Shown piece after piece: positions 9,122-64,000 of a stretch of 64,000 nucleotides of DNA. Location of the stretch: assembly GCA_029261595.1 (NCBI GenBank), contig JAJDAZ010000044.1:31377-95376 (forward strand), in the 5' to 3' direction. Below the pieces are notes generated by a model. It was not told the origin of the DNA and ran no database searches. It saw only the letters and a program-made list of their open reading frames with translations. Numbering within the stretch: position 1 is the first letter of the stretch; each line of letters opens with the position of its first letter. This DNA is from Nitrospinaceae bacterium (lineage in GTDB: Bacteria; Nitrospinota; Nitrospinia; Nitrospinales; VA-1). Position numbers and translations under genes: made by a program.

Positions 9122-10606
9122 TTACTCCAGAATAAAAGAAATTGGCAATTTGAACCTGATTGTTTTCATTTTGAGAGGCTCTGGAATTGGCGGGTAGGGG
9201 CTTGCTGATATTACTGCATCGAGAGCCGCTTTATCTAATAGTTTATAACGGGAGGGGTTGTTTATGGAAACCGCTATGAGATTTCCGTTATTTCCCAAAG
9301 TGAAGACGACCACCGGCTCACCCTCCAATCCCCGCCTGCGTGCTGTTCTCGGGTAATATTTCGTCTGGGCGATTTTACTTCGAACCTGGGTCAAAAATGT
9401 CTTTTTGATTTTCCCCATCTGCTCCGGAGAAATATCGTTGGTTCCCCCCGTAGAGTTGTTTTTCTTCGATAGAGAGGCGACATTGGTTTTGCCACTTCCA
9501 TCAACAGCCTCCTCAATGAATCCGTAGGGAATGGAAACCATTTGCGCCATGCTGGCAGTTCCGAAAGGAGCGGGTGAATAATCTTCTGCGGCTGCAAGAG
9601 CCGGATTTCCGGTGGTTGATATATCAGAATCCAATCCCTGCGGAGATCGCTTTTGAACTCCCCCCGACGGTCCGGAAACTGTTGTCAATGCAAGCCGTAC
9701 AGCGCTTGCGGGTGCGATGGACGCGCCCTGGTTGAGCGTTTTAAAATGTTGCGCCTGAATGACCGTATGGGCATGGGATATTCTGCCCCCGGCGGCGGAA
9801 TGGACTTTGGATGCCGCCGTGCGGGTAAATAAAATTTCCTCTGGCCTGTCGTCGGAAAATATTTTTGCCGAGGCAAAGGCGGCTTTTTTGAATTCACCTC
9901 GTGCATCTTGAAAAGTAACGGCAGGTGCTTTGGAAAATTCCATCAATGCCACTTCCTGGACATGCCTTCTTTGGGCGGTGGGTTGTGGCGATGCTATATC
10001 TGATGTCGGCATTGCCTGCCGGGTCGCAATCTTAGAGTTGGCCCGTTTCCTGTTTAAAAAAGATTTCTGTGGCTGGCGGGGCCGGATTCCGCTGGATGAA
10101 GCCATGATCGTTGTGTTTGGTTGCAGCGGGCGCGGCGTTGCCGGACGCACCGAAGGAGTTTTCATTTCTGCAGATTTTCGAACCCTCGCGGCTGAATCTT
10201 TGATTGTTGAATTCGGTTGCATCGCCTTCATTGGTTGAAAGGATTGTTGTGGAATCTGGATCGGTTCGGGAATGTTTCTTACAGCGGGAGAGGGCCTGAC
10301 CGCCTTGACGCTTTTCACCTCAGGAGTTTTTTCTCTCATTTCAAGGGAGAAGGGTTGCGGCTGCTTCGCGGGTTTTGAAACTTCCCTATTAATTTTTTGT
10401 TCCGGTTCAGGAAGCTTTTTCTGAACCCGCTTTTCGGGTTTTTCCACCACCGCTTTAATTTTGAAAATTCTTTCCTTGACGGGGTCGGGACCTGTTCCCC
10501 ATGAGGGAAATATTAAAATACCGGTCAAATGCACCACCATTGAAAAAGCGATAGTGTATTTTAAGATATTATTCTTGATATGTCTGAAAAACAATTTGGA
10601 ATTCAT
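9122..10606 (-). CDS. TonB-family energy transducer, unusually long (494 aa)
   Basis: N-terminal TM anchor (YTIAFSMVVHLTGILIF), Pro/Lys/Glu-rich spacer, and C-terminal YPRTARRRGLEGEPVVVFTL...AVISASPYPPIP...IRFKLPISF, which matches the TonB C-terminal domain. Confidence 0.75.
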   Translation of the reverse strand: MNSKLFFRHIKNNILKYTIAFSMVVHLTGILIFPSWGTGPDPVKERIFKIKAVVEKPEKRVQKKLPEPEQKINREVSKPAKQPQPFSLEMREKTPEVKSVKAVRPSPAVRNIPEPIQIPQQSFQPMKAMQPNSTIKDSAARVRKSAEMKTPSVRPATPRPLQPNTTIMASSSGIRPRQPQKSFLNRKRANSKIATRQAMPTSDIASPQPTAQRRHVQEVALMEFSKAPAVTFQDARGEFKKAAFASAKIFSDDRPEEILFTRTAASKVHSAAGGRISHAHTVIQAQHFKTLNQGASIAPASAVRLALTTVSGPSGGVQKRSPQGLDSDISTTGNPALAAAEDYSPAPFGTASMAQMVSIPYGFIEEAVDGSGKTNVASLSKKNNSTGGTNDISPEQMGKIKKTFLTQVRSKIAQTKYYPRTARRRGLEGEPVVVFTLGNNGNLIAVSINNPSRYKLLDKAALDAVISASPYPPIPEPLKMKTIRFKLPISFILE

Positions 10607-56737: not shown

Positions 56738-57088
56738 GTTCCTTTTCCTTTATCTCTAAAATTATTTTTTCAGAAAATGGTACAAAACCTTACTAAAAGC
56801 TTATCAGGATGTAAACGTTTTTTTAACCAAAAACTGGAGATAACCTGAATCCACCGTGTAAATGAGAGGTAACTCCGGCCGCCAATAACTAAGCGGTGTA
56901 AACCTATATAGAGACAAATAAATAACAAGTCAAGAAATTTTTGAATTATCCTGCCCGGCACTGGCAAATCTTTATTCCCGGAATAAAAAATTGGGGGTTT
57001 TAGTCTTGTTTACAATGAGATCGATGAATGGGGAGAGTTGAAGATTTGTTGCAACCGGATGGGTTTAATTTGTTATTATTATCCCAGA

Positions 57089-59227
57089 ATGAATACCAAA
57101 CGGATTTTGATATTTTTGCCTCTTGGGTTGGTGGTTTTCCTGGCGCAGTCGTTTTTCTGGGTTCCCACCTATGACAAGCAGGCGGTGGGCAACCCCAACC
57201 GGCTGGTCAAATACATTCATGGCTCTGCGGCGGATGCGGAAATCCTGAACCCCATTCTGAGCGCGGATACCACCAGTAGCTCCATCAACGGGCTGGTTTT
57301 CGACGGTTTGATCGATCTGGACGATAAACTGGAGTACCGTCCCCGTCTGGCTTCTTCGTGGGTGCAATATGAAGAGGCTTTTCTGGTGGTTCCCGCTGAT
57401 GGCCTTGTAAAGGATATCCCGTCAGGCTCCCATGATTTCGCAAAATGGATTCTGACCGCTTTGAAATCCAATACTGCCTGGTACAAAAACCTCAAGTCGG
57501 TCGAGGTGGTCGCCGGGAAAGAAAAAAAGGGGCAAGCGACTGTCCCGGTTTTGGATGGGCCAGGAAAACCGGTCGTGGAAAATGGCCGGCCCAAAACCCG
57601 CAAGGTGGATTACCGATTGCAACAGCCGGATCGAATCAAATTCACCCTGCACAAAATCGACCAGGACTTTTTTGCCCCTGTAAAAAAATTGCTGGGCGAG
57701 GGAGTGTTTCAATCATTTCCGTATATGCAATTCATACATGCGAAGGATTCCTCGGAGCAGAAAAATCTGGCGGTGCATTATCAGGAAATTTTACCCCTGA
57801 CCGAGCATAATCCCATCATCGTATTTAACCTTAGAAAAAGCGTTCGTTTTCATGACGGGCATGAATTCGATTCTGGCGACGTGTTGTTCACTTATCAGGC
57901 GATCATGAACCCGAAGAACGCCTCTCCCCGTACATCCGATTACGAGCCCATCAAATCCGTTGAGCCACTAGGGTCGCATGAGATAAAAATTGTTTACAAA
58001 CGGTTGTTTTCACCAGCGATCAATTCGTGGTTCATGGGAATTCTGCCCGAGCACTTGTTAAATGATGTGGCCTTGAAAAAAGAAGCCGATGAAAAAGGCG
58101 CGGACACAGAAGCCTTTAGCATCCGGGACAGCAAGCACAATCGGCATCCGGTGGGAACAGGGCCTTTTGTGTTCAAGGAATGGCAGTCCGATGAATTGAT
58201 CCGTCTGGTTGGCAATAAAGACTATTGGGAATTTCCCCCGGAATATGAGGAGTATGTGATGCGCATCGTGCCCGACGCATTGACTCAGGAAATGGAGTTT
58301 TACGCGGGAGCCGTGGACAACTATTCCGTTCAGCCGCATCAGGTGGCAAGGTTCAAAAAGGATGAAAAATACCAGAACTTTTCCAGCGTCGGATACTTTT
58401 ATTCCTACATCGGCTATAACCAGAGAAACCCGTTGTTCAAATCCGCCGAAGTGCGCCGTGCTTTGGGAATGGCGATCGATACGGAGAAGATCATCAAGTA
58501 TATTTTATACGGGGAAGGGGAGCGGGTCACCGGGCCATATCCAAAAATCACCGACTGGTACGACCCCTCAATACAACCCTTACCCTATGACCCGGCAGGG
58601 GCTTTAAAGATACTGAATGGCCTTGGCTGGCAGAAAAACGACGATGGGTATTTAGAAAAGGACGGCAAGGTGTTTGAGTTCAACCTCATCACCAACGCCG
58701 GCAACCCCATCCGCAAAAATATTCTGACTATTGCGCAGAACAGCTGGGAAAAGCTCGGCATCAAATGCCAGACCCAGATTTTCGAATGGGCAGTGTTCCT
58801 CAAGGATTTCGTCAACGCCCTGAAATACGATGCGCTGGTGCTGGGGTGGAGCATGGGCATCGACCCGGACCTTTATCAGATCTGGCATTCGAGCCAGACC
58901 AATCCCAAACAACTCAATTTCGTGGGTTATGAGAATCCGGATGTGGATCGCTTGATCGTCCGGATTCGGCGGGAATATGACAAAAAGAAGCAGGTGAAAA
59001 TGGCGCATGAACTGCACCGACAGATCGCTAAAGACCAGCCGTACACCTTTCTATATGTTCAAAAAGCCACTCAATTATTGGATAAGAAAATCGTCATCGT
59101 TGATCGTAAGCCCGACGGATCGGAAAAGTTTTCCAAAATTTATCCCACCAAAGACGGAAGCATCCGATTCTATTTCAACAAATGGAAGAAAATTGGGCAG
59201 GTGCCTCAGTTTTCAGCGGGAGGTTGA
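57089..59227 (+). CDS. ABC transporter substrate-binding protein, family 5 (peptide/nickel/opine type)
   Basis: The ATG at 57089 gives signal peptide MNTKRILIFLPLGLVVFLAQ. Long SBP_bac_5-type body (FHDGHEFDSGDVLFTYQ, VGTGPFVFKEW, GWSMGIDPDLYQIWHS). No permease or ATPase genes are adjacent. Confidence 0.85.
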   Translation: MNTKRILIFLPLGLVVFLAQSFFWVPTYDKQAVGNPNRLVKYIHGSAADAEILNPILSADTTSSSINGLVFDGLIDLDDKLEYRPRLASSWVQYEEAFLVVPADGLVKDIPSGSHDFAKWILTALKSNTAWYKNLKSVEVVAGKEKKGQATVPVLDGPGKPVVENGRPKTRKVDYRLQQPDRIKFTLHKIDQDFFAPVKKLLGEGVFQSFPYMQFIHAKDSSEQKNLAVHYQEILPLTEHNPIIVFNLRKSVRFHDGHEFDSGDVLFTYQAIMNPKNASPRTSDYEPIKSVEPLGSHEIKIVYKRLFSPAINSWFMGILPEHLLNDVALKKEADEKGADTEAFSIRDSKHNRHPVGTGPFVFKEWQSDELIRLVGNKDYWEFPPEYEEYVMRIVPDALTQEMEFYAGAVDNYSVQPHQVARFKKDEKYQNFSSVGYFYSYIGYNQRNPLFKSAEVRRALGMAIDTEKIIKYILYGEGERVTGPYPKITDWYDPSIQPLPYDPAGALKILNGLGWQKNDDGYLEKDGKVFEFNLITNAGNPIRKNILTIAQNSWEKLGIKCQTQIFEWAVFLKDFVNALKYDALVLGWSMGIDPDLYQIWHSSQTNPKQLNFVGYENPDVDRLIVRIRREYDKKKQVKMAHELHRQIAKDQPYTFLYVQKATQLLDKKIVIVDRKPDGSEKFSKIYPTKDGSIRFYFNKWKKIGQVPQFSAGG

Positions 59228-59321
59228 CTCCTGCTCGGAGGGCGACCTTTACGAATCCAGCCTTCGTCTATCCCGGATAACGAAAAGCCTGTCTACATAA
59301 TCTATTAAATAACAAAAACAA

Positions 59322-59762
59322 ATGGACTACTTTGCTGAACTGGGCTATTTCGGCCTTTTTGTTGCGGCTTTTTTAGCCGCGACCGTTTTACCTTTAAGCT
59401 CTGAAGTGGTTTTAAGCATTTTATTAGTAAACGGTTTATCGCCAATTGCATTAGTTACTGTCGCTACAATTGGAAATGTGTTGGGATCTCTTACGAATTA
59501 TGCCCTGGGGTATTGGGCCAGCCTGGGCGTCATTAAAAAATGGCTGAAAATTTCCGAGGAGGAGTTTGTTCGGACGGAGCGGCGCTTCGCAAAATATGGA
59601 CTGTTCTCACTATGTTTTGCCTGGGTGCCTATCATTGGCGATCCAATAACCGTGGTGGCTGGCATATTGCGCATTCGTCTATTGTGGTTTGTGCTATTGG
59701 TCACCGCAGGCAAACTGATACGCTATATCGTCGTCAGTTATTTAATAATGCAAGTGAACTGA
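59322..59762 (+). CDS. YqaA/DedA-type (SNARE-associated) small membrane protein
   Basis: 146 aa with 4 hydrophobic segments. The pattern LPLSSEVVL...GNVLGSLTNYALGY...GDPITVVAG is typical of the YqaA family. Confidence 0.7.
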   Translation: MDYFAELGYFGLFVAAFLAATVLPLSSEVVLSILLVNGLSPIALVTVATIGNVLGSLTNYALGYWASLGVIKKWLKISEEEFVRTERRFAKYGLFSLCFAWVPIIGDPITVVAGILRIRLLWFVLLVTAGKLIRYIVVSYLIMQVN

Positions 59763-59812
59763 TCTGACAACATTGCCTCACCAGTAGTTCAAGGCACCCC
59801 TCTTGAGGATGG

Positions 59813-60124
59813 CTAACACATTTCCTTCACTTCTGCGACTTCTATGGTACCCATCACAAGGAACGGGCATGCCTCAGCCATTGCAAGAGCCGCATCCATG
59901 TTGTCGGCTTTCACGATACAAAACCCTAACAAAGGATTCGACCCTCCATCGTCTGATACCCCATCGGAACTGACGGTCTTGGAATTTCCCAGTGGAGTGT
60001 CGGGGGTGTCCACGGCATCGCCCAAGCCGCTGACCCAGGCTTGATACTTCTCCATATGTTTGGCTCCCTCCTCAGGGCTCTCAGGCATTTTACCAGCGTG
60101 ATAGGCCAGGATAAATTTAGGCAT
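59813..60124 (-). CDS. YCII-related/DGPF-like small protein
   Basis: MPKFILAYHAGKMPESPEEG...GFCIVKADNMDAALAMAEACPF resembles YCII-like domain proteins. Weak call. Confidence 0.5.
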   Translation of the reverse strand: MPKFILAYHAGKMPESPEEGAKHMEKYQAWVSGLGDAVDTPDTPLGNSKTVSSDGVSDDGGSNPLLGFCIVKADNMDAALAMAEACPFLVMGTIEVAEVKEMC

Positions 60125-60242
60125 AAGCTTACTCCTCTTTTTCAGTTTATGTTTGCAGGACGTTTAGTTTTCCCAAGTGACGATTGTCCAATATTCCAGC
60201 CTGGATAACAATTTCAAAAATGACCGTCTTGATGCAAAGGTC

Positions 60243-60288
60243 TCCTACAAAATCCGTCTCCGCAAATAAATCTCCACCGTGTTGCGGG
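60243..60288. repeat. 46-bp direct repeat, copy 1 (non-coding relic of the FG-GAP gene 3' end, downstream of nhaA)
   Basis: TCCTACAAAATCCGTCTCCGCAAATAAATCTCCACCGTGTTGCGGG is identical to 61623-61668. With 2 mismatches the similarity spans 60241-60293 versus 61621-61673. Confidence 0.95.
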
Positions 60289-60291
60289 TGT

Positions 60292-61494
60292 TTAGTCGTT
60301 TTGGGCAGATTTCGGCAAGCTAACGTGAAGCAGGACATAACCGACTAAGGCAGACAGGATGGAACCTATCAGAATGCCTAAACGATCCCCGCTAAAGTAG
60401 TCGCCACCGCCATGCTCGAAAGCCAGACCTGCGATAAAAAGGCTCATGGTGAAACCGATCCCGCAGGCAAAGGCCACTCCGAGTAGTTGCATCCAGTTCA
60501 TGTTGTTCGGAAGCTGAACAAATCGAAGACCGACCGCGAGCCCGACAAATACGAGAATTCCCAGTGGTTTCCCCATGAATAAACCCAAAACAACGCCCAC
60601 GGTCACAGGGTGAGTGAGGCTTTCAATGGACACACCGGATAATGAGAGTCCTGCATTGGCAAACGCAAAAAACGGGAGAATCGCGAACGCGACGGGGCCG
60701 TGCAGATTGTGTTCAAGTTCGCGTAGCGGAGATGTTCCCTTCTCATCACGCATCGGGATGCAAAATGCGATGAGGACACCCGCTAACGTCGCATGAACAC
60801 CTGATTTCAAGACAGCGATCCATAGCACAACTCCTAAAAGAATGAAACTCGAGGTGCGTGTCACGCCAGTTTTGTTCATAATGATTGCAATAATGAGGGC
60901 TGAAATACCAATGAATAGTGCACTAAGAGAGAGGTCACCGGAATAGAAAAGAGCGATGATAATAATGGCAGCCAGGTCATCGAATATAGCCAATGTGAGC
61001 AGGAATACTTTCAGGGCGGTCGGCACACGACTACCGAATACGCTTAGCAATGCCAACGCGAAAGCGATGTCGGTCGCCACAGGAATCGCCCAGCCATCCA
61101 GAGCAATGGGATCACTCCAATTCATCCAGGAATAGATCGCGGCGGGAATAACCATACCCCCAAGGGCACCCATGCCGGGCAGGACGATTTGGGAAAAAGA
61201 GGACAACTCTCCTTCCATGATTTCTCGTTTCACCTCAAGGCCAATCAAAAAGAAGAACACGGCCATCAGACCATCATTAACCCAGAGTAGCAACGGCTTG
61301 TTGATTGACAAAGCGCCCACCTGGACCGCCACGGTTGTATCAAGCAAGGCGTCGTAGAGGTACGCTAATGGAGAGTTGGCAACCACCATTGCAATAAGAG
61401 TAGCGGCTAACAAAAGGATGCCGCTGGCCGACTCCAGTTTTGTGAAGGAGAGAAAGGCAGTCAAAATGGGTGGTGATTCGCTTTGTTCATCCAT
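60292..61494 (-). CDS. nhaA: Na+/H+ antiporter NhaA
   Basis: WVNDGLMAVFFFLIGLEVKRE, GWAIPVATDIAFAL and FDDLAAIIIIALFYS are near-identical to E. coli NhaA motifs. The ATG at 61494 (MDEQSES...) is preferred over the track's upstream TTG. Confidence 0.95.
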   Translation of the reverse strand: MDEQSESPPILTAFLSFTKLESASGILLLAATLIAMVVANSPLAYLYDALLDTTVAVQVGALSINKPLLLWVNDGLMAVFFFLIGLEVKREIMEGELSSFSQIVLPGMGALGGMVIPAAIYSWMNWSDPIALDGWAIPVATDIAFALALLSVFGSRVPTALKVFLLTLAIFDDLAAIIIIALFYSGDLSLSALFIGISALIIAIIMNKTGVTRTSSFILLGVVLWIAVLKSGVHATLAGVLIAFCIPMRDEKGTSPLRELEHNLHGPVAFAILPFFAFANAGLSLSGVSIESLTHPVTVGVVLGLFMGKPLGILVFVGLAVGLRFVQLPNNMNWMQLLGVAFACGIGFTMSLFIAGLAFEHGGGDYFSGDRLGILIGSILSALVGYVLLHVSLPKSAQND

Positions 61495-61622
61495 AAGAGC
61501 AAAAATAGAACGTTCGTTAAAGTCAATAATTGAATGACCGCATTTGGTCGATAGCGGTTTTCCGGGACGCAAGAACGTCTGACATCGTGGTCAGATCATG
61601 TTCCGACTAATACATATCCTTA

Positions 61623-61668
61623 TCCTACAAAATCCGTCTCCGCAAATAAATCTCCACCGTGTTGCGGG
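61623..61668. repeat. 46-bp direct repeat, copy 2 (encodes the last 13 codons + stop of the FG-GAP gene)
   Basis: The reverse complement translates to RNTVEIYLRRRIL*, the C-terminus of ORF 61625-62782. Confidence 0.95.
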
Positions 61669-62782
61669 CGTTACTGGAAACGGCGATGTCCATCATGCCG
61701 TCGGCGTTATAGTCCCCGCTGGTGATGGCTAGCGGCGTGCCTCCGGCGATGACGTAATCACGGGTCGGGAAATGGAACCCTCCGTTGGGTCGGCGGATGA
61801 TCAATGAAAAATTGCTGGAACGGGAGTTGGCCACCGCCACGTCTACGCGATCGTCGTCGTTGAAATGTTCCGCGACCAGTGCGATCGGTCCGCCGCCGCC
61901 GGAAAAAGTGATTTCCTTTTGAAAGGTTCCATCGCCGTTGGAAGGGAACAGGTGCATGTTGTCGCCTTGCCCCGTCGTGCAGACCAGATCCATCTTGCCG
62001 TCGTTATTCATGTCCTTTTTGATGAGCGCCAGCGGAACGAAACCTTTGGCTATAGATAGGGGTTTTTGAAACGTCCCGTCACCGTTGCCCCAAAATATTC
62101 TGATAGAGCTTGCGTTCGAACTGCTGGCGGCCAGGGCGATGTCTGGCGCGCCGTCGCCGTTGAAATCGTGGGACACGCCGGAGAACGACCGGGAGCCTGT
62201 GAGGTAGGTTTCGCCTTTCTTGAAAAAGCCGTTGCCGTTGCCGAGGTAGAGTTCCATTTTGTCGAAAGTCAGGGTGACGGCGATGTCTATTTTACCGTCC
62301 TGATTATAATCGTCCGCGATCACTGCAAGGGGAACCCGGCCCGTCGGGTGCTTTTGCGGCGACCGGAAGGCATTTTTTCCCTTTCCCAGAAGTGTGACAA
62401 AGGCGTTTGTTCCCCTGGAATTGACCACGAGGTCGGGGATCGTGTCGTTATTCAAATCCGCAACGGTTAGGAAAGTGGGTTCCATGGGAACAGCGATATT
62501 CAGCGGTGATTGAAATGTTCCATCGCCTTTACCGTAGAGGATGGTCAGAGTGCTGTTTTTGGCGTTGGCCGAGATAATATCCGCCTCTCCGTCCAGGTTC
62601 AAATCCGCTGTCAAGAGATAGGCTGGCCCCTGTCCCAAAGGCATGACATGGTATTTATAAAACAGGTCCGGGGGCGGGGAGGGCAGTTTGAAAAAGTCGC
62701 ACCCGGCGGGAAAAATGCAGGCCATCAGCAATAGCCAGTTGAGGCGTTGGCAGTAGCTCTTTTCGTTTTGCTTAAGGTTCAC
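61625..62782 (-). CDS. FG-GAP/VCBS-repeat beta-propeller lipoprotein
   Basis: Lipobox FPAGC. Seven repeats with Ca-loop motifs (DLNLDGEADII, DLNNDTIPDLV, DYNQDGKIDIA, DFNGDGAPDIA, DMNNDGKMDLV, FNDDDRVDVA, DYNADGMMDIA) and GxGDGTF segments. Confidence 0.8.
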   Translation of the reverse strand: MNLKQNEKSYCQRLNWLLLMACIFPAGCDFFKLPSPPPDLFYKYHVMPLGQGPAYLLTADLNLDGEADIISANAKNSTLTILYGKGDGTFQSPLNIAVPMEPTFLTVADLNNDTIPDLVVNSRGTNAFVTLLGKGKNAFRSPQKHPTGRVPLAVIADDYNQDGKIDIAVTLTFDKMELYLGNGNGFFKKGETYLTGSRSFSGVSHDFNGDGAPDIALAASSSNASSIRIFWGNGDGTFQKPLSIAKGFVPLALIKKDMNNDGKMDLVCTTGQGDNMHLFPSNGDGTFQKEITFSGGGGPIALVAEHFNDDDRVDVAVANSRSSNFSLIIRRPNGGFHFPTRDYVIAGGTPLAITSGDYNADGMMDIAVSSNARNTVEIYLRRRIL

Positions 62783-62991
62783 TTTGGTTCTAACCCTTTG
62801 TTTTAGTGGCTTGAGGGGTTAGCCCGCCTTGAGGCAATAGCGCGTTAACACTGGGTCCAGCGTCTCGCTGGTTAATTCCCTTGATTTTACAGGGTTCCTG
62901 TGTAAAAATCGCTGAAAATTAATGTTATCAACCGTCCTCGCTCTAACTCGATGAAGTTAGGGCTGACCCAAACCCATGAGGAGGTAAAGAA

Positions 62992-63423
62992 TTGCGTTCC
63001 TACCAGAGTGTCCTGATCCTGAAGCCCGATTTAGATGAAGCACAAGTCGGCGAATCCTTAGAAAAAATTACTGAACTAGTCAAAAACCATGGCGGAGACA
63101 TCCTTAAAGTCGATAAATGGGGCAAAAAACGCCTGGCTTATAAAGTAAAGAAAAACAGGTTTGGATATTACCTGAATATCTACCACACCTGTGAAAATGA
63201 AAGTGTCCCGGCATTGGAAGCCAAATACAAGCTCTATGACGCGATCATTAAATTCATGGTCCTGCGTTTGGATGATAAAGAGTTGGAACGCGCTATGGGA
63301 AATGGTGAGGAAACTGAGGAAGGTGCGGTCACTGACGATGCGGAGGTCAAAAAGGATGAAAGCGAGAAAACTGAAGCGAAAGAACCGGAAACTGTCCCCG
63401 CTATAGACGAAAGAGGGATCTGA
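62992..63423 (+). CDS. rpsF: 30S ribosomal protein S6 (with acidic C-terminal tail)
   Basis: MRSYQSVLILKPDLDE...KWGKKRLAYKVKKNRFGYY. TTG start 8 nt after GAGGAGG. Confidence 0.95.
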   Translation: MRSYQSVLILKPDLDEAQVGESLEKITELVKNHGGDILKVDKWGKKRLAYKVKKNRFGYYLNIYHTCENESVPALEAKYKLYDAIIKFMVLRLDDKELERAMGNGEETEEGAVTDDAEVKKDESEKTEAKEPETVPAIDERGI

Positions 63424-63467
63424 ATAGTTGATGAAGACCAGCCAATCCAACAAGAACGGGGTGCTTA

Positions 63468-63875
63468 ATGGCGTCATTCAATAAAGTTTTACTCATGGGC
63501 AATCTGACCCGTGACCCGGAACTGCGTTACACGTCCAGCGGAGCGGCGGTCGCTAGTTTTGGTCTAGCGGTCAACCGGAAATATAAAGCAGGCGATGAAT
63601 GGAAAGACGAAGTCTGTTATGTGGATATAACGGTTTGGGCCAAACAGGCCGAAAATTGCGCGGAATATCTGCACAAGGGAAGTCCCGTTTTTCTGGAAGG
63701 TCGTTTGAACTTTCAATCCTGGGAAACCGATACCGGGCAGAAACGCAACAAGCTGGAAGTCGTGGCCAATAATATCCAATTCCTGGGTCGTCCCGGCGAA
63801 AGCAAGGGTGCCTCATCAGGAGGAATGGGAATGGATGGACCTCCTCCCGGTGAAAAGGATGATATTCCTTTTTAA
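63468..63875 (+). CDS. ssb: single-stranded DNA-binding protein
   Basis: MASFNKVLLMGNLTRDPELRYTSSGAAVASFGLAVNR OB-fold start, a Gly-rich linker and the acidic tip DDIPF. Confidence 0.95.
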   Translation: MASFNKVLLMGNLTRDPELRYTSSGAAVASFGLAVNRKYKAGDEWKDEVCYVDITVWAKQAENCAEYLHKGSPVFLEGRLNFQSWETDTGQKRNKLEVVANNIQFLGRPGESKGASSGGMGMDGPPPGEKDDIPF

Positions 63876-63917
63876 ATTTTTCAAATATTATCAATAACAA
63901 TAAAGAGTGAATAACTA

Positions 63918-64000
63918 ATGGGAACAGCAAGCACACGAAAACGATCGTTTTTTTCTCAAAAGATTTGTCGGTTTTGCGCGGACAAGGCGGACCACATCGA
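63918..64000 (+). CDS. rpsR: 30S ribosomal protein S18, N-terminal fragment (runs off window)
   Basis: The ATG at 63918 gives MGTASTRKRSFFSQKICRFCADKADHI, the S18 N-terminal pattern. Canonical rpsF-ssb-rpsR order. Confidence 0.85.
   Translation, partial: MGTASTRKRSFFSQKICRFCADKADHI

Follow-up and report, generated by a model that had tools for sequence, protein, structure and literature searches.

A duplicated FG-GAP gene tail bracketing nhaA in a Nitrospinaceae genome as a probable scar of homology-anchored recombination

We analyzed a 64,000-nt stretch of DNA from a Nitrospinaceae bacterium (assembly GCA_029261595.1, contig JAJDAZ010000044.1, positions 31,377 to 95,376 of the forward strand; hereafter, the window), in which the Na+/H+ antiporter gene nhaA is bracketed by two copies of the 3' end of the adjacent FG-GAP gene. 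A first-pass annotation had interpreted this arrangement as an nhaA cassette or element that integrated site-specifically and left a duplicated attachment (att) site. We find that nhaA is indeed an addition at this position, which is a hot spot for lineage-specific cargo, but that the duplication lacks the properties of an att site: the repeat is host gene sequence, and native intergenic DNA lies inside the bracket. Instead, we favor, with a probability of roughly 55%, the explanation that the repeat is the scar of homology-anchored recombination between two versions of a chromosomal slot. A second, independent example of such a duplication, around an unrelated gene, is present in a sister genome.

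A duplicated gene tail in a hypervariable slot

The window contains exactly two copies of the perfect 46-mer TCCTACAAAATCCGTCTCCGCAAATAAATCTCCACCGTGTTGCGGG (60243-60288 and 61623-61668), with 1,334 nt between them. No match to it was found in 100 dinucleotide shuffles, even with 3 mismatches allowed, and none is expected by chance. A repeat search extended the pair to 50 nt at 98% identity (1 mismatch; 60243-60292 and 61623-61672; spacing 1380), and inclusion of the flanks gave 52 nt with 2 mismatches, close to the 53 bp with 2 mismatches reported in the first-pass annotation, whose two perfect 46-bp copies were likewise borne out. The coding copy (R; 61623-61672, minus strand) comprises the last 13-15 codons of the FG-GAP gene, its TAG stop codon, and a following GA; its 46-nt perfect part (61623-61668) encodes ...RNTVEIYLRRRIL and the stop codon, then GA. 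The FG-GAP genes of loci L002, L003, and L161-L163 and of other Nitrospinaceae have 3' ends homologous to R. The duplicate (R'; 60243-60292, minus strand) is non-coding, ends in the same TAGGA as R, and starts 3 nt past the TAA stop codon of nhaA. The assignment of one copy to the last 13 codons plus stop, and of the other to non-coding DNA 3 nt past nhaA, agrees with the initial description, and we read R' as a vestigial FG-GAP tail. The FG-GAP/VCBS repeat gene itself (61625-62782, minus strand; 385 aa; Pfam FG-GAP_3, E=5e-47) is intact, and nhaA (60292-61494, minus strand; 400 aa) matches its family over the full length (PF06965, E=3.5e-142) and has the DD motif.

Both junctions of the bracket were recovered from raw reads. 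Logan unitig L001 (k=31, run SRR15505516) is 1394 nt long (1334 + 2x30); it covers this nhaA segment and breaks off at either end after 30 nt of the repeat. Thus, the bracketing of nhaA is independent of this assembly. The order of the junctions around the repeat is not resolvable in the k=31 unitig graph. R contains the inverted repeat CCGCAA/TTGCGG, whose hairpin is weak (-4.9 kcal/mol, z = -0.7). With this weak hairpin, no terminator-like site, and no Rfam match, R was rejected as a terminator or known RNA. The window from 59000 to 64000 gave no Rfam match at E<=1, and 12 nhaA loci gave nothing relevant.

Homologues of its FG-GAP gene assign the window to a genome of the Nitrospinaceae (Nitrospinota). 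Comparison with 68 species-representative genomes of Nitrospinota placed the bracket in a variable gap between conserved genes. The order ssb, rpsF, FG-GAP, SBP_bac_5, and Fer4, in which ssb and rpsF point away from FG-GAP and SBP_bac_5 points toward it, with Fer4 oriented like FG-GAP, is widespread across these genomes, and FG-GAP is syntenic with rpsF-ssb in 60+ Nitrospinota genomes. In about 20 Nitrospinota species, FG-GAP and SBP_bac_5 are directly convergent and ~15-60 nt apart, and this adjacency is, judged from the gene orders, the ancestral state. By contrast, in the clade of the window (FG-GAP 83-100% identical), the cargo between these genes differs from genome to genome: nhaA, a YCII-like gene, and a VTT gene in the window; a 175-aa gene (u175) and an ankyrin gene in L002 and L004; u175, a 276-aa gene, and a VTT gene in L003; a globin gene in L161; a pyrophosphatase gene and a VTT gene in L162; and an aldo-keto-reductase fragment with small open reading frames (ORFs) in L163. 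The gap between FG-GAP and SBP_bac_5, or VTT-SBP_bac_5, is therefore, by its contents, a hypervariable slot in this Nitrospinaceae clade. Within the clade, only the slot of the window contains nhaA, and in none of the 68 species genomes was nhaA found within 8 kb of FG-GAP. The varied cargo and the restriction of nhaA to the window imply that nhaA is an insertion that arrived as lineage-specific cargo. The first-pass annotation had reasoned that one arrangement common to all relatives would speak against an insertion; the nearest relatives carry other cargo in the slot. The empty site that it predicted, with FG-GAP followed directly by the YCII-like gene, was not found in any collection searched.

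The genes on the far side of the slot, SBP_bac_5 (57038-59227) and VTT/DedA (59322-59762), are conserved, lie on the plus strand, and converge on FG-GAP, nhaA, and the YCII-like gene, all of which are on the minus strand. The YCII-like gene (59813-60124) is itself lineage-specific, as the slots of all relatives lack YCII, and exact look-ups of the FG-GAP and YCII proteins of the window returned no match. Six contigs from Nitrospinota (L008, L021, L022, L034, L045, and L053) stop ~100-300 nt past FG-GAP, as would be expected if this position were strain-variable and assembly-breaking in other lineages too.

The composition of nhaA does not set it apart from the host. Gene-wide GC content is 50.5% for nhaA, 54.4% for FG-GAP, 52.2% for the YCII-like gene, and 47.5% for the window, and the third-position GC content of nhaA is 0.55, against a host range of 0.47-0.68. 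Foreign origin by composition was therefore rejected; the contrast of 43% for nhaA with 67% for FG-GAP that had been put forward came from unrepresentative single lines of sequence.

Host origin of the repeat and a second example

Matches to the 50-mer were confined to the 3' ends of FG-GAP genes in Nitrospinaceae. The 50-mer was not found beside nhaA in about 90 loci with nhaA homologues elsewhere, and a 26-mer from R had no match in IMG/VR. The repeat is thus, from this distribution, host gene sequence and not a site carried by an element. This distribution gives no sign of the widespread intergenic element that the first-pass annotation had named as a possible alternative to insertion.

The DNA next to R inside the bracket is likewise of host origin. 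In local alignments, this ~75-nt segment (flank A; 61548-61622, minus strand) scored 45, 26, and 28 against the FG-GAP downstream flanks of L163, L161, and L162, respectively, compared with a null of mean about 15 and standard deviation about 2, and 0 of 1000 shuffles reached the observed scores. Flank A is therefore homologous to native FG-GAP flanks, and the bracket starts with native DNA and not with an nhaA cassette. A hairpin (ACCGC...GCGGT; 61537-61558, minus strand) lies at the left edge of the nhaA segment; homology to the nhaA family starts at its 3' arm, CCAAATGCGGTCATTCA (61531-61547), and continues to ...GACTAAAC at the stop codon. Thus, the bracket contains native flank A plus an nhaA segment of ~1.25 kb. 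The first-pass annotation gave the length of the interval (1,334 bp) correctly, whereas the ~130-bp leader that it described (128 nt) is not cassette throughout, because about 75 nt of it (61548-61622) are native FG-GAP flank. Native flank inside the bracket is predicted by homology-anchored recombination and is contrary to an element bounded by att sites.

At the other end of the segment, where nhaA meets R', the end of the nhaA-family consensus, AACGTCCGC, and the FG-GAP sequence AACGCCCGC match at 8 of 9 positions, with the consensus built from nhaA relatives and not from the true donor. This match is plausibly a microhomology. Relics of the nhaA promoter or hairpin were sought in the native flanks of L161 and L163, and the candidates were rejected as not significant after multiple tests. 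Likewise, the FG-GAP tail at the start of contig L071 is explained simply by truncation of that contig, which belongs to another allele.

When every locus was searched against itself, L003, a metagenome-assembled genome (MAG) of a sister Nitrospinaceae, was the only other genome with a second FG-GAP tail. There, u175, a gene of unknown function that is unrelated to nhaA, is bracketed by FG-GAP tail copies of 107 nt and 92% identity (1392-1498 and 2218-2324). The duplications in the window and in L003 share their 3' border, the TAG stop codon plus GA(A), or TAGGA, and this border coincides with the end of sequence conservation between slot versions. Their 5' borders differ, at -47 in the window and -103 in L003. 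In L002, the same u175 follows FG-GAP directly, with no duplicate, and L002 looks like a donor-type version for the L003 event. Moreover, the R' of L003 is a mosaic, with a 5' part identical to the L002 allele and a 3' part that resembles the R of L003 itself, which is what a single crossover within the duplicated segment predicts.

Homology-anchored recombination and its alternatives

The recombination that we propose would have joined two versions of the slot, version A with FG-GAP, native flank A, and nhaA, and version B with FG-GAP, flank B, and the YCII-like gene, the latter predicted to contain CCAGTAACGCCCGCAAC...GTAGGAGACCTTTGCATC. A fragment that ran from 47 nt before the FG-GAP stop codon (-47 to +2) through flank A to the end of nhaA would first have been closed into a circle by an illegitimate join at a short microhomology between the cassette end ...TAAACGTCCGC and FG-GAP ...GTAACGCCCGC. 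This circle would then have integrated into version B by a single RecA-type crossover in the ~46-50 nt of FG-GAP tail homology, to give the product FG-GAP(R)-flankA-nhaA-R'-flankB-YCII. The same product could arise by one-sided homologous plus illegitimate recombination (homology-facilitated illegitimate recombination, HFIR), with the illegitimate junction inside the anchor.

Homology-anchored recombination is supported by the presence of a variable slot between core genes, by a host-derived duplication with native DNA contiguous to one of its copies, and by the failure to detect a recombinase gene in the window. Several observations weigh against it. Neither version B (FG-GAP-flankB-YCII) nor a version A that lacks R' was found in the collections searched, and flank B (60125-60242, minus strand; 118 nt between R' and the YCII-like gene) has no significant similarity to any FG-GAP flank or other fetched locus; L002/L003-type flanks in particular were rejected as its source (local alignments, p = 0.2-0.5). 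R and R' are 100% identical over 46 nt, whereas alleles within the clade differ at 3-6 of 46 positions, which implies that the partners were near-identical strains or that the event occurred within one genome. An additional ACTAAACGTCCTGC 75 nt past R' is not predicted by the proposed steps, and the microhomology is judged from nhaA relatives that are only ~87% identical in nucleotide sequence, not from the true donor. A homology of 46-50 nt is close to the minimum with which RecA crossover works efficiently. Finally, the event would presuppose competence or another route of DNA uptake in this organism. Flank B also contains a promoter-like site 5' of the YCII-like gene (60217-60190, minus strand; TTGAAA-16-AATATT with a TG extension).

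The relatives of nhaA bear on several of the alternatives, the main ones of which we take in order of decreasing probability. The closest relatives have 86-90% protein identity and ~87% nucleotide identity to nhaA of the window, and hundreds of homologues have 77-90% identity, mostly on short contigs. The same NhaA protein occurs in at least 6 genomic contexts. In three metagenomic contigs from different samples, the nhaA ORF is 100% identical over 1203 nt (L075, 1124-2326; L077, 566-1768; L078, 638-1840), and the identity reaches about 81-109 nt 5' and about 19 nt 3' of nhaA, beyond which the flanks are unrelated. These copies point, by their identity, to very recent movement of a single-gene block of ~1.3 kb. 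The FtsZ of L074 (nhaA 87% identical) assigns this contig to the Nitrospinaceae, and nhaA lies elsewhere in its chromosome; thus, nhaA is nomadic within the family and not foreign to it.

In the closest relatives (L072-L083), nhaA is flanked by a hairpin, S, with the consensus ATGTCCGCTTTGGGTCGAAAGCGGACAT (GTCYGCTTTGGGTCGnnAGCGGAC) also written (A)TGTCCGCTTTGGGTCG(nn)AGCGGACA(T), for example at 84-117 and 1376-1399 in L072 and at 2329-2353 in L075; its counterpart in the window is at 61531-61558. In relatives that are at least 86% identical, S lies 3 nt past the stop codon, and a longer palindrome lies ~54 nt 5' of the start codon. The conserved leader of the relatives (...CTTGCTAA...TAATTATCTGCACTATCAGG) is ~12 nt longer than the nhaA leader of the window. 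S has no Rfam family and no annotation, and its matches in annotated plasmids and phages were marginal (E~0.3-0.9) and unannotated. As a repeat element of this genome it was rejected, as it occurs once in the 64 kb, 5' of nhaA, and other slots lack it. Six exact matches were found in IMG/VR contigs (L164-L169; 48-62% GC) that lack nhaA, where by our own estimate far fewer than one is expected by chance. In L169, two copies of S directly follow small ORFs. S may be a module boundary, a repetitive extragenic palindrome-like element, or a terminator. In L006, from a more distant member of the Nitrospinales, a GC-rich hairpin GACCGCTTC...GAAGCGGAC followed by a T-run (9254-9295) is found ~150 nt past FG-GAP. 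It resembles a common intrinsic terminator and cautions against over-reading its likeness to the nhaA-flanking hairpin.

These features raise the unlikely alternative that nhaA is a module bounded by S and moved by a hairpin- or palindrome-specific recombinase, which used the FG-GAP tail as a secondary site because AACGCCCGCAA...TTGCGGAG mimics an S site. The identical block of L075, L077, and L078 does end inside S hairpins, the position of S around nhaA is conserved in the relatives, the 6 IMG/VR matches exceed chance, and R contains an inverted repeat of its own. Moreover, homology to the nhaA family halts exactly at the 5' edge of R', where FG-GAP resembles the left arm of S. However, conservative site-specific recombination would not duplicate 46 nt, and the left junction is about 75 nt past R and not at R. 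The arms of S are 0 to 11 nt apart, unlike known tyrosine-recombinase core sites, other slots of the clade lack S motifs, and the hairpin of R is the weak one described above. No recombinase gene was found beside any nhaA locus or in the window. A fuller form of this explanation, which we consider distinctly improbable, is that nhaA travels on a previously undescribed single-gene module, delimited by a conserved 24-34-nt hairpin and moved between chromosomal sites of Nitrospinaceae by an unknown hairpin-recognising enzyme. The FG-GAP tail would then have been targeted as a mimic of a hairpin arm, and the 46-nt duplication would be a by-product of non-canonical (replicative or single-strand) integration. 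The hairpin of this proposed module occurs in unrelated environmental and (pro)viral contigs as well.

Integron cassettes (attC) and pdif/Xer modules are single-gene modules with imperfect-palindrome bounds that occur as identical sequence in different contexts, and L072-L083 resemble them in these respects. An integron cassette was considered because GTTAGGC lies 5' of nhaA in L075, L077, and L078 and toxin-antitoxin genes are nearby. It was ruled out, since L075 continues into gyrB, an ordinary chromosomal context, the conserved block ends about 19 nt past the stop codon in a short, 24-nt hairpin, the attC-like folds 5' of nhaA are weak (L077, z = -2.2; L078, z = -1.4), and no IntI was found. 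Unlike the bounds of integron cassettes and pdif modules, the nhaA hairpins are 24-34 nt long, lack R''/R' boxes, and have variable arm spacing, with no IntI or Xer gene found nearby. An integron cassette would have at its 3' end an attC site (R''-L''...L'-R') of at least ~55 nt, with an IntI/attI platform nearby. In folding analyses, R and the nhaA flanks of the window contained no attC-like fold, and the likeness to these systems leaves the 46-nt duplication unexplained.

About as improbable as the undescribed module is an insertion of R' itself. In this scenario, nhaA...GACTAAAC-GTCCTGC...YCII would already have been adjacent when a 128-nt piece, consisting of the FG-GAP tail and 75 nt from a different flank, was copied in between them through template switching or end-joining, with the 7 nt ACTAAAC duplicated as a result. 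The leader of the YCII-like gene contains an exact ACTAAACGTCCTGC (60155-60168, minus strand) that repeats the 3' end of nhaA and the left arm of the hairpin; this motif and the ACTAAAC at the nhaA stop codon make up a direct repeat of 7 nt on either side of R' plus 75 nt. Among 163 loci, the 11-mer ACTAAACGTCC was otherwise confined to the nhaA ends of L072, L073, and L083, and it occurs once in the 64-kb window. Deletion of the 128 nt and of one ACTAAAC would restore a 3' flank typical of the nhaA family. Against this scenario, the motif was spotted post hoc, another slot version would still be required as the source of flank B, and the piece has no terminal inverted repeats. Moreover, these data hold no precedent for such an insertion, whereas L003 shows a bracketed cargo.

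The site-specific integration of the first-pass annotation is, in our assessment, quite improbable. By this model, an element that carried the FG-GAP 3' end as attP integrated to leave attL and attR, with its integrase acting in trans or since lost. The architecture fits, with a regenerated gene 3' end and direct repeats of ~46 nt, and the relatives of nhaA are mobile; integrated elements are typically flanked by att copies of ~40 nt, one of host and one of element origin (10.1101/2020.12.28.424599). However, the repeat does not travel with the cargo, because it is never associated with nhaA elsewhere; the bracketed DNA is not all element, because 75 nt next to R are native flank A; and there is no fixed core, because the duplication is 46-50 nt in the window and 107 nt, at 92% identity and with another 5' border, in L003, with only the 3' border in common. 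A compositional signal is also absent. As the first-pass annotation had noted, no integrase or transposase is visible. None was present among the best 25 of the 65 Pfam families matched by 51 ORFs of the window, or in individual scans of ten ORFs next to the locus and of the slot genes, and tblastn with XerD and IntI1 queries gave no match in the window or in the ~163 fetched loci.

A mis-joined assembly seems very improbable. The chromosome would then be FG-GAP-R-flankB-YCII, and the unit of R, flank A, and nhaA would be a free circle, a tandem array, or part of a co-occurring strain, threaded once into the contig as a loop of the de Bruijn graph through the 46-mer. The k=31 unitig does break off after 30 nt of the repeat at each end, which leaves the order unresolved in that graph, and related MAGs came from an eight-sample co-assembly with many Nitrospinaceae strains (PMC11995701). 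However, both novel junctions, R/flank A and nhaA/FG-GAP tail, are present in raw-read unitigs, and the tail copy after nhaA is thus real under any topology; reads of at least 100 nt and k >50 span a 46-nt repeat, and the recorded contig is 149 kb long.

Two further candidates were rejected: a transposon or insertion sequence, since no transposase was detected in the scans described above, the 1,334-nt interval has no bounding terminal inverted repeats, and a duplication of variable length (46-107 nt) is outside the known range of transposon target duplications; and a tandem duplication of the tail-flank-nhaA unit, to which flank B has no significant similarity.

Known recombination scars and biological meaning

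We read the duplication in the window as a new example of a scar that recombination is already known to leave, here at a hot spot of the flexible genome. In E. coli experiments with one-ended homology, recircularised molecules had integrated by a single crossover in 56 of 60 recombinants, with duplication of a homologous segment of 109-950 bp, and HFIR junctions usually had 3-10 bp of microhomology (PMC3240628). The arrangement in the window is like such Campbell-type integration or HFIR in its one-sided anchor (the FG-GAP tail), its microhomology junction, the duplication of the anchor on both sides, and the lack of need for a dedicated recombinase. It differs in that the anchor is only 46-50 nt (107 nt in L003) and in that the event is inferred from natural genomes and not observed. 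In addition, classical HFIR usually deletes recipient DNA, whereas a duplication is found here.

HFIR was also put forward to explain displaced 3' gene fragments in Vibrio type VI secretion system (T6SS) and Rhs arrays (PMC5361080; de Vries and Wackernagel 2002 and Prudhomme et al. 2002, as cited there). In the Vibrio T6SS effector-immunity arrays and in Rhs/contact-dependent inhibition (CDI) loci, as we propose here, incoming DNA anchored in a conserved upstream gene displaces the old 3' end as a non-functional remnant, and repeated events build arrays (PMC5361080). In those loci, what is exchanged is the variable toxin domain at the 3' end, and immunity genes persist in the orphans. Here, by contrast, the gene end stays identical, the duplication covers no more than 15-35 codons, and the cargo has no relation to the anchor gene. 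Integrative elements directed at the 3' ends of genes, among them tycheposons and islands that target tRNA genes (10.1101/2020.12.28.424599), likewise hold hot-spot cargo between a full and a partial target 3' end of about 40 nt, and both they and this slot are relevant to niche adaptation. Those elements encode island-specific tyrosine recombinases and supply the partial copy themselves, whereas the searches here found no integrase, the repeats are of variable length, and the bracketed DNA includes native flank.

Homology-anchored recombination would make this locus a clean natural case in which streamlined, integrase-poor environmental bacteria gain single adaptive genes at a fixed hot spot by host recombination only, and it illustrates how the vestigial tail of a neighbouring gene can pass for an att site. 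Recombination between R and R' could also precisely lose, amplify, or release as a circle nhaA together with flank A. NhaA is a Na+/H+ antiporter that functions in salt and alkaline-pH tolerance, and the nearest genome relatives were obtained from biofilms of saline seepage on tunnel concrete (PMC11995701). The gain of nhaA may thus be ecologically meaningful.

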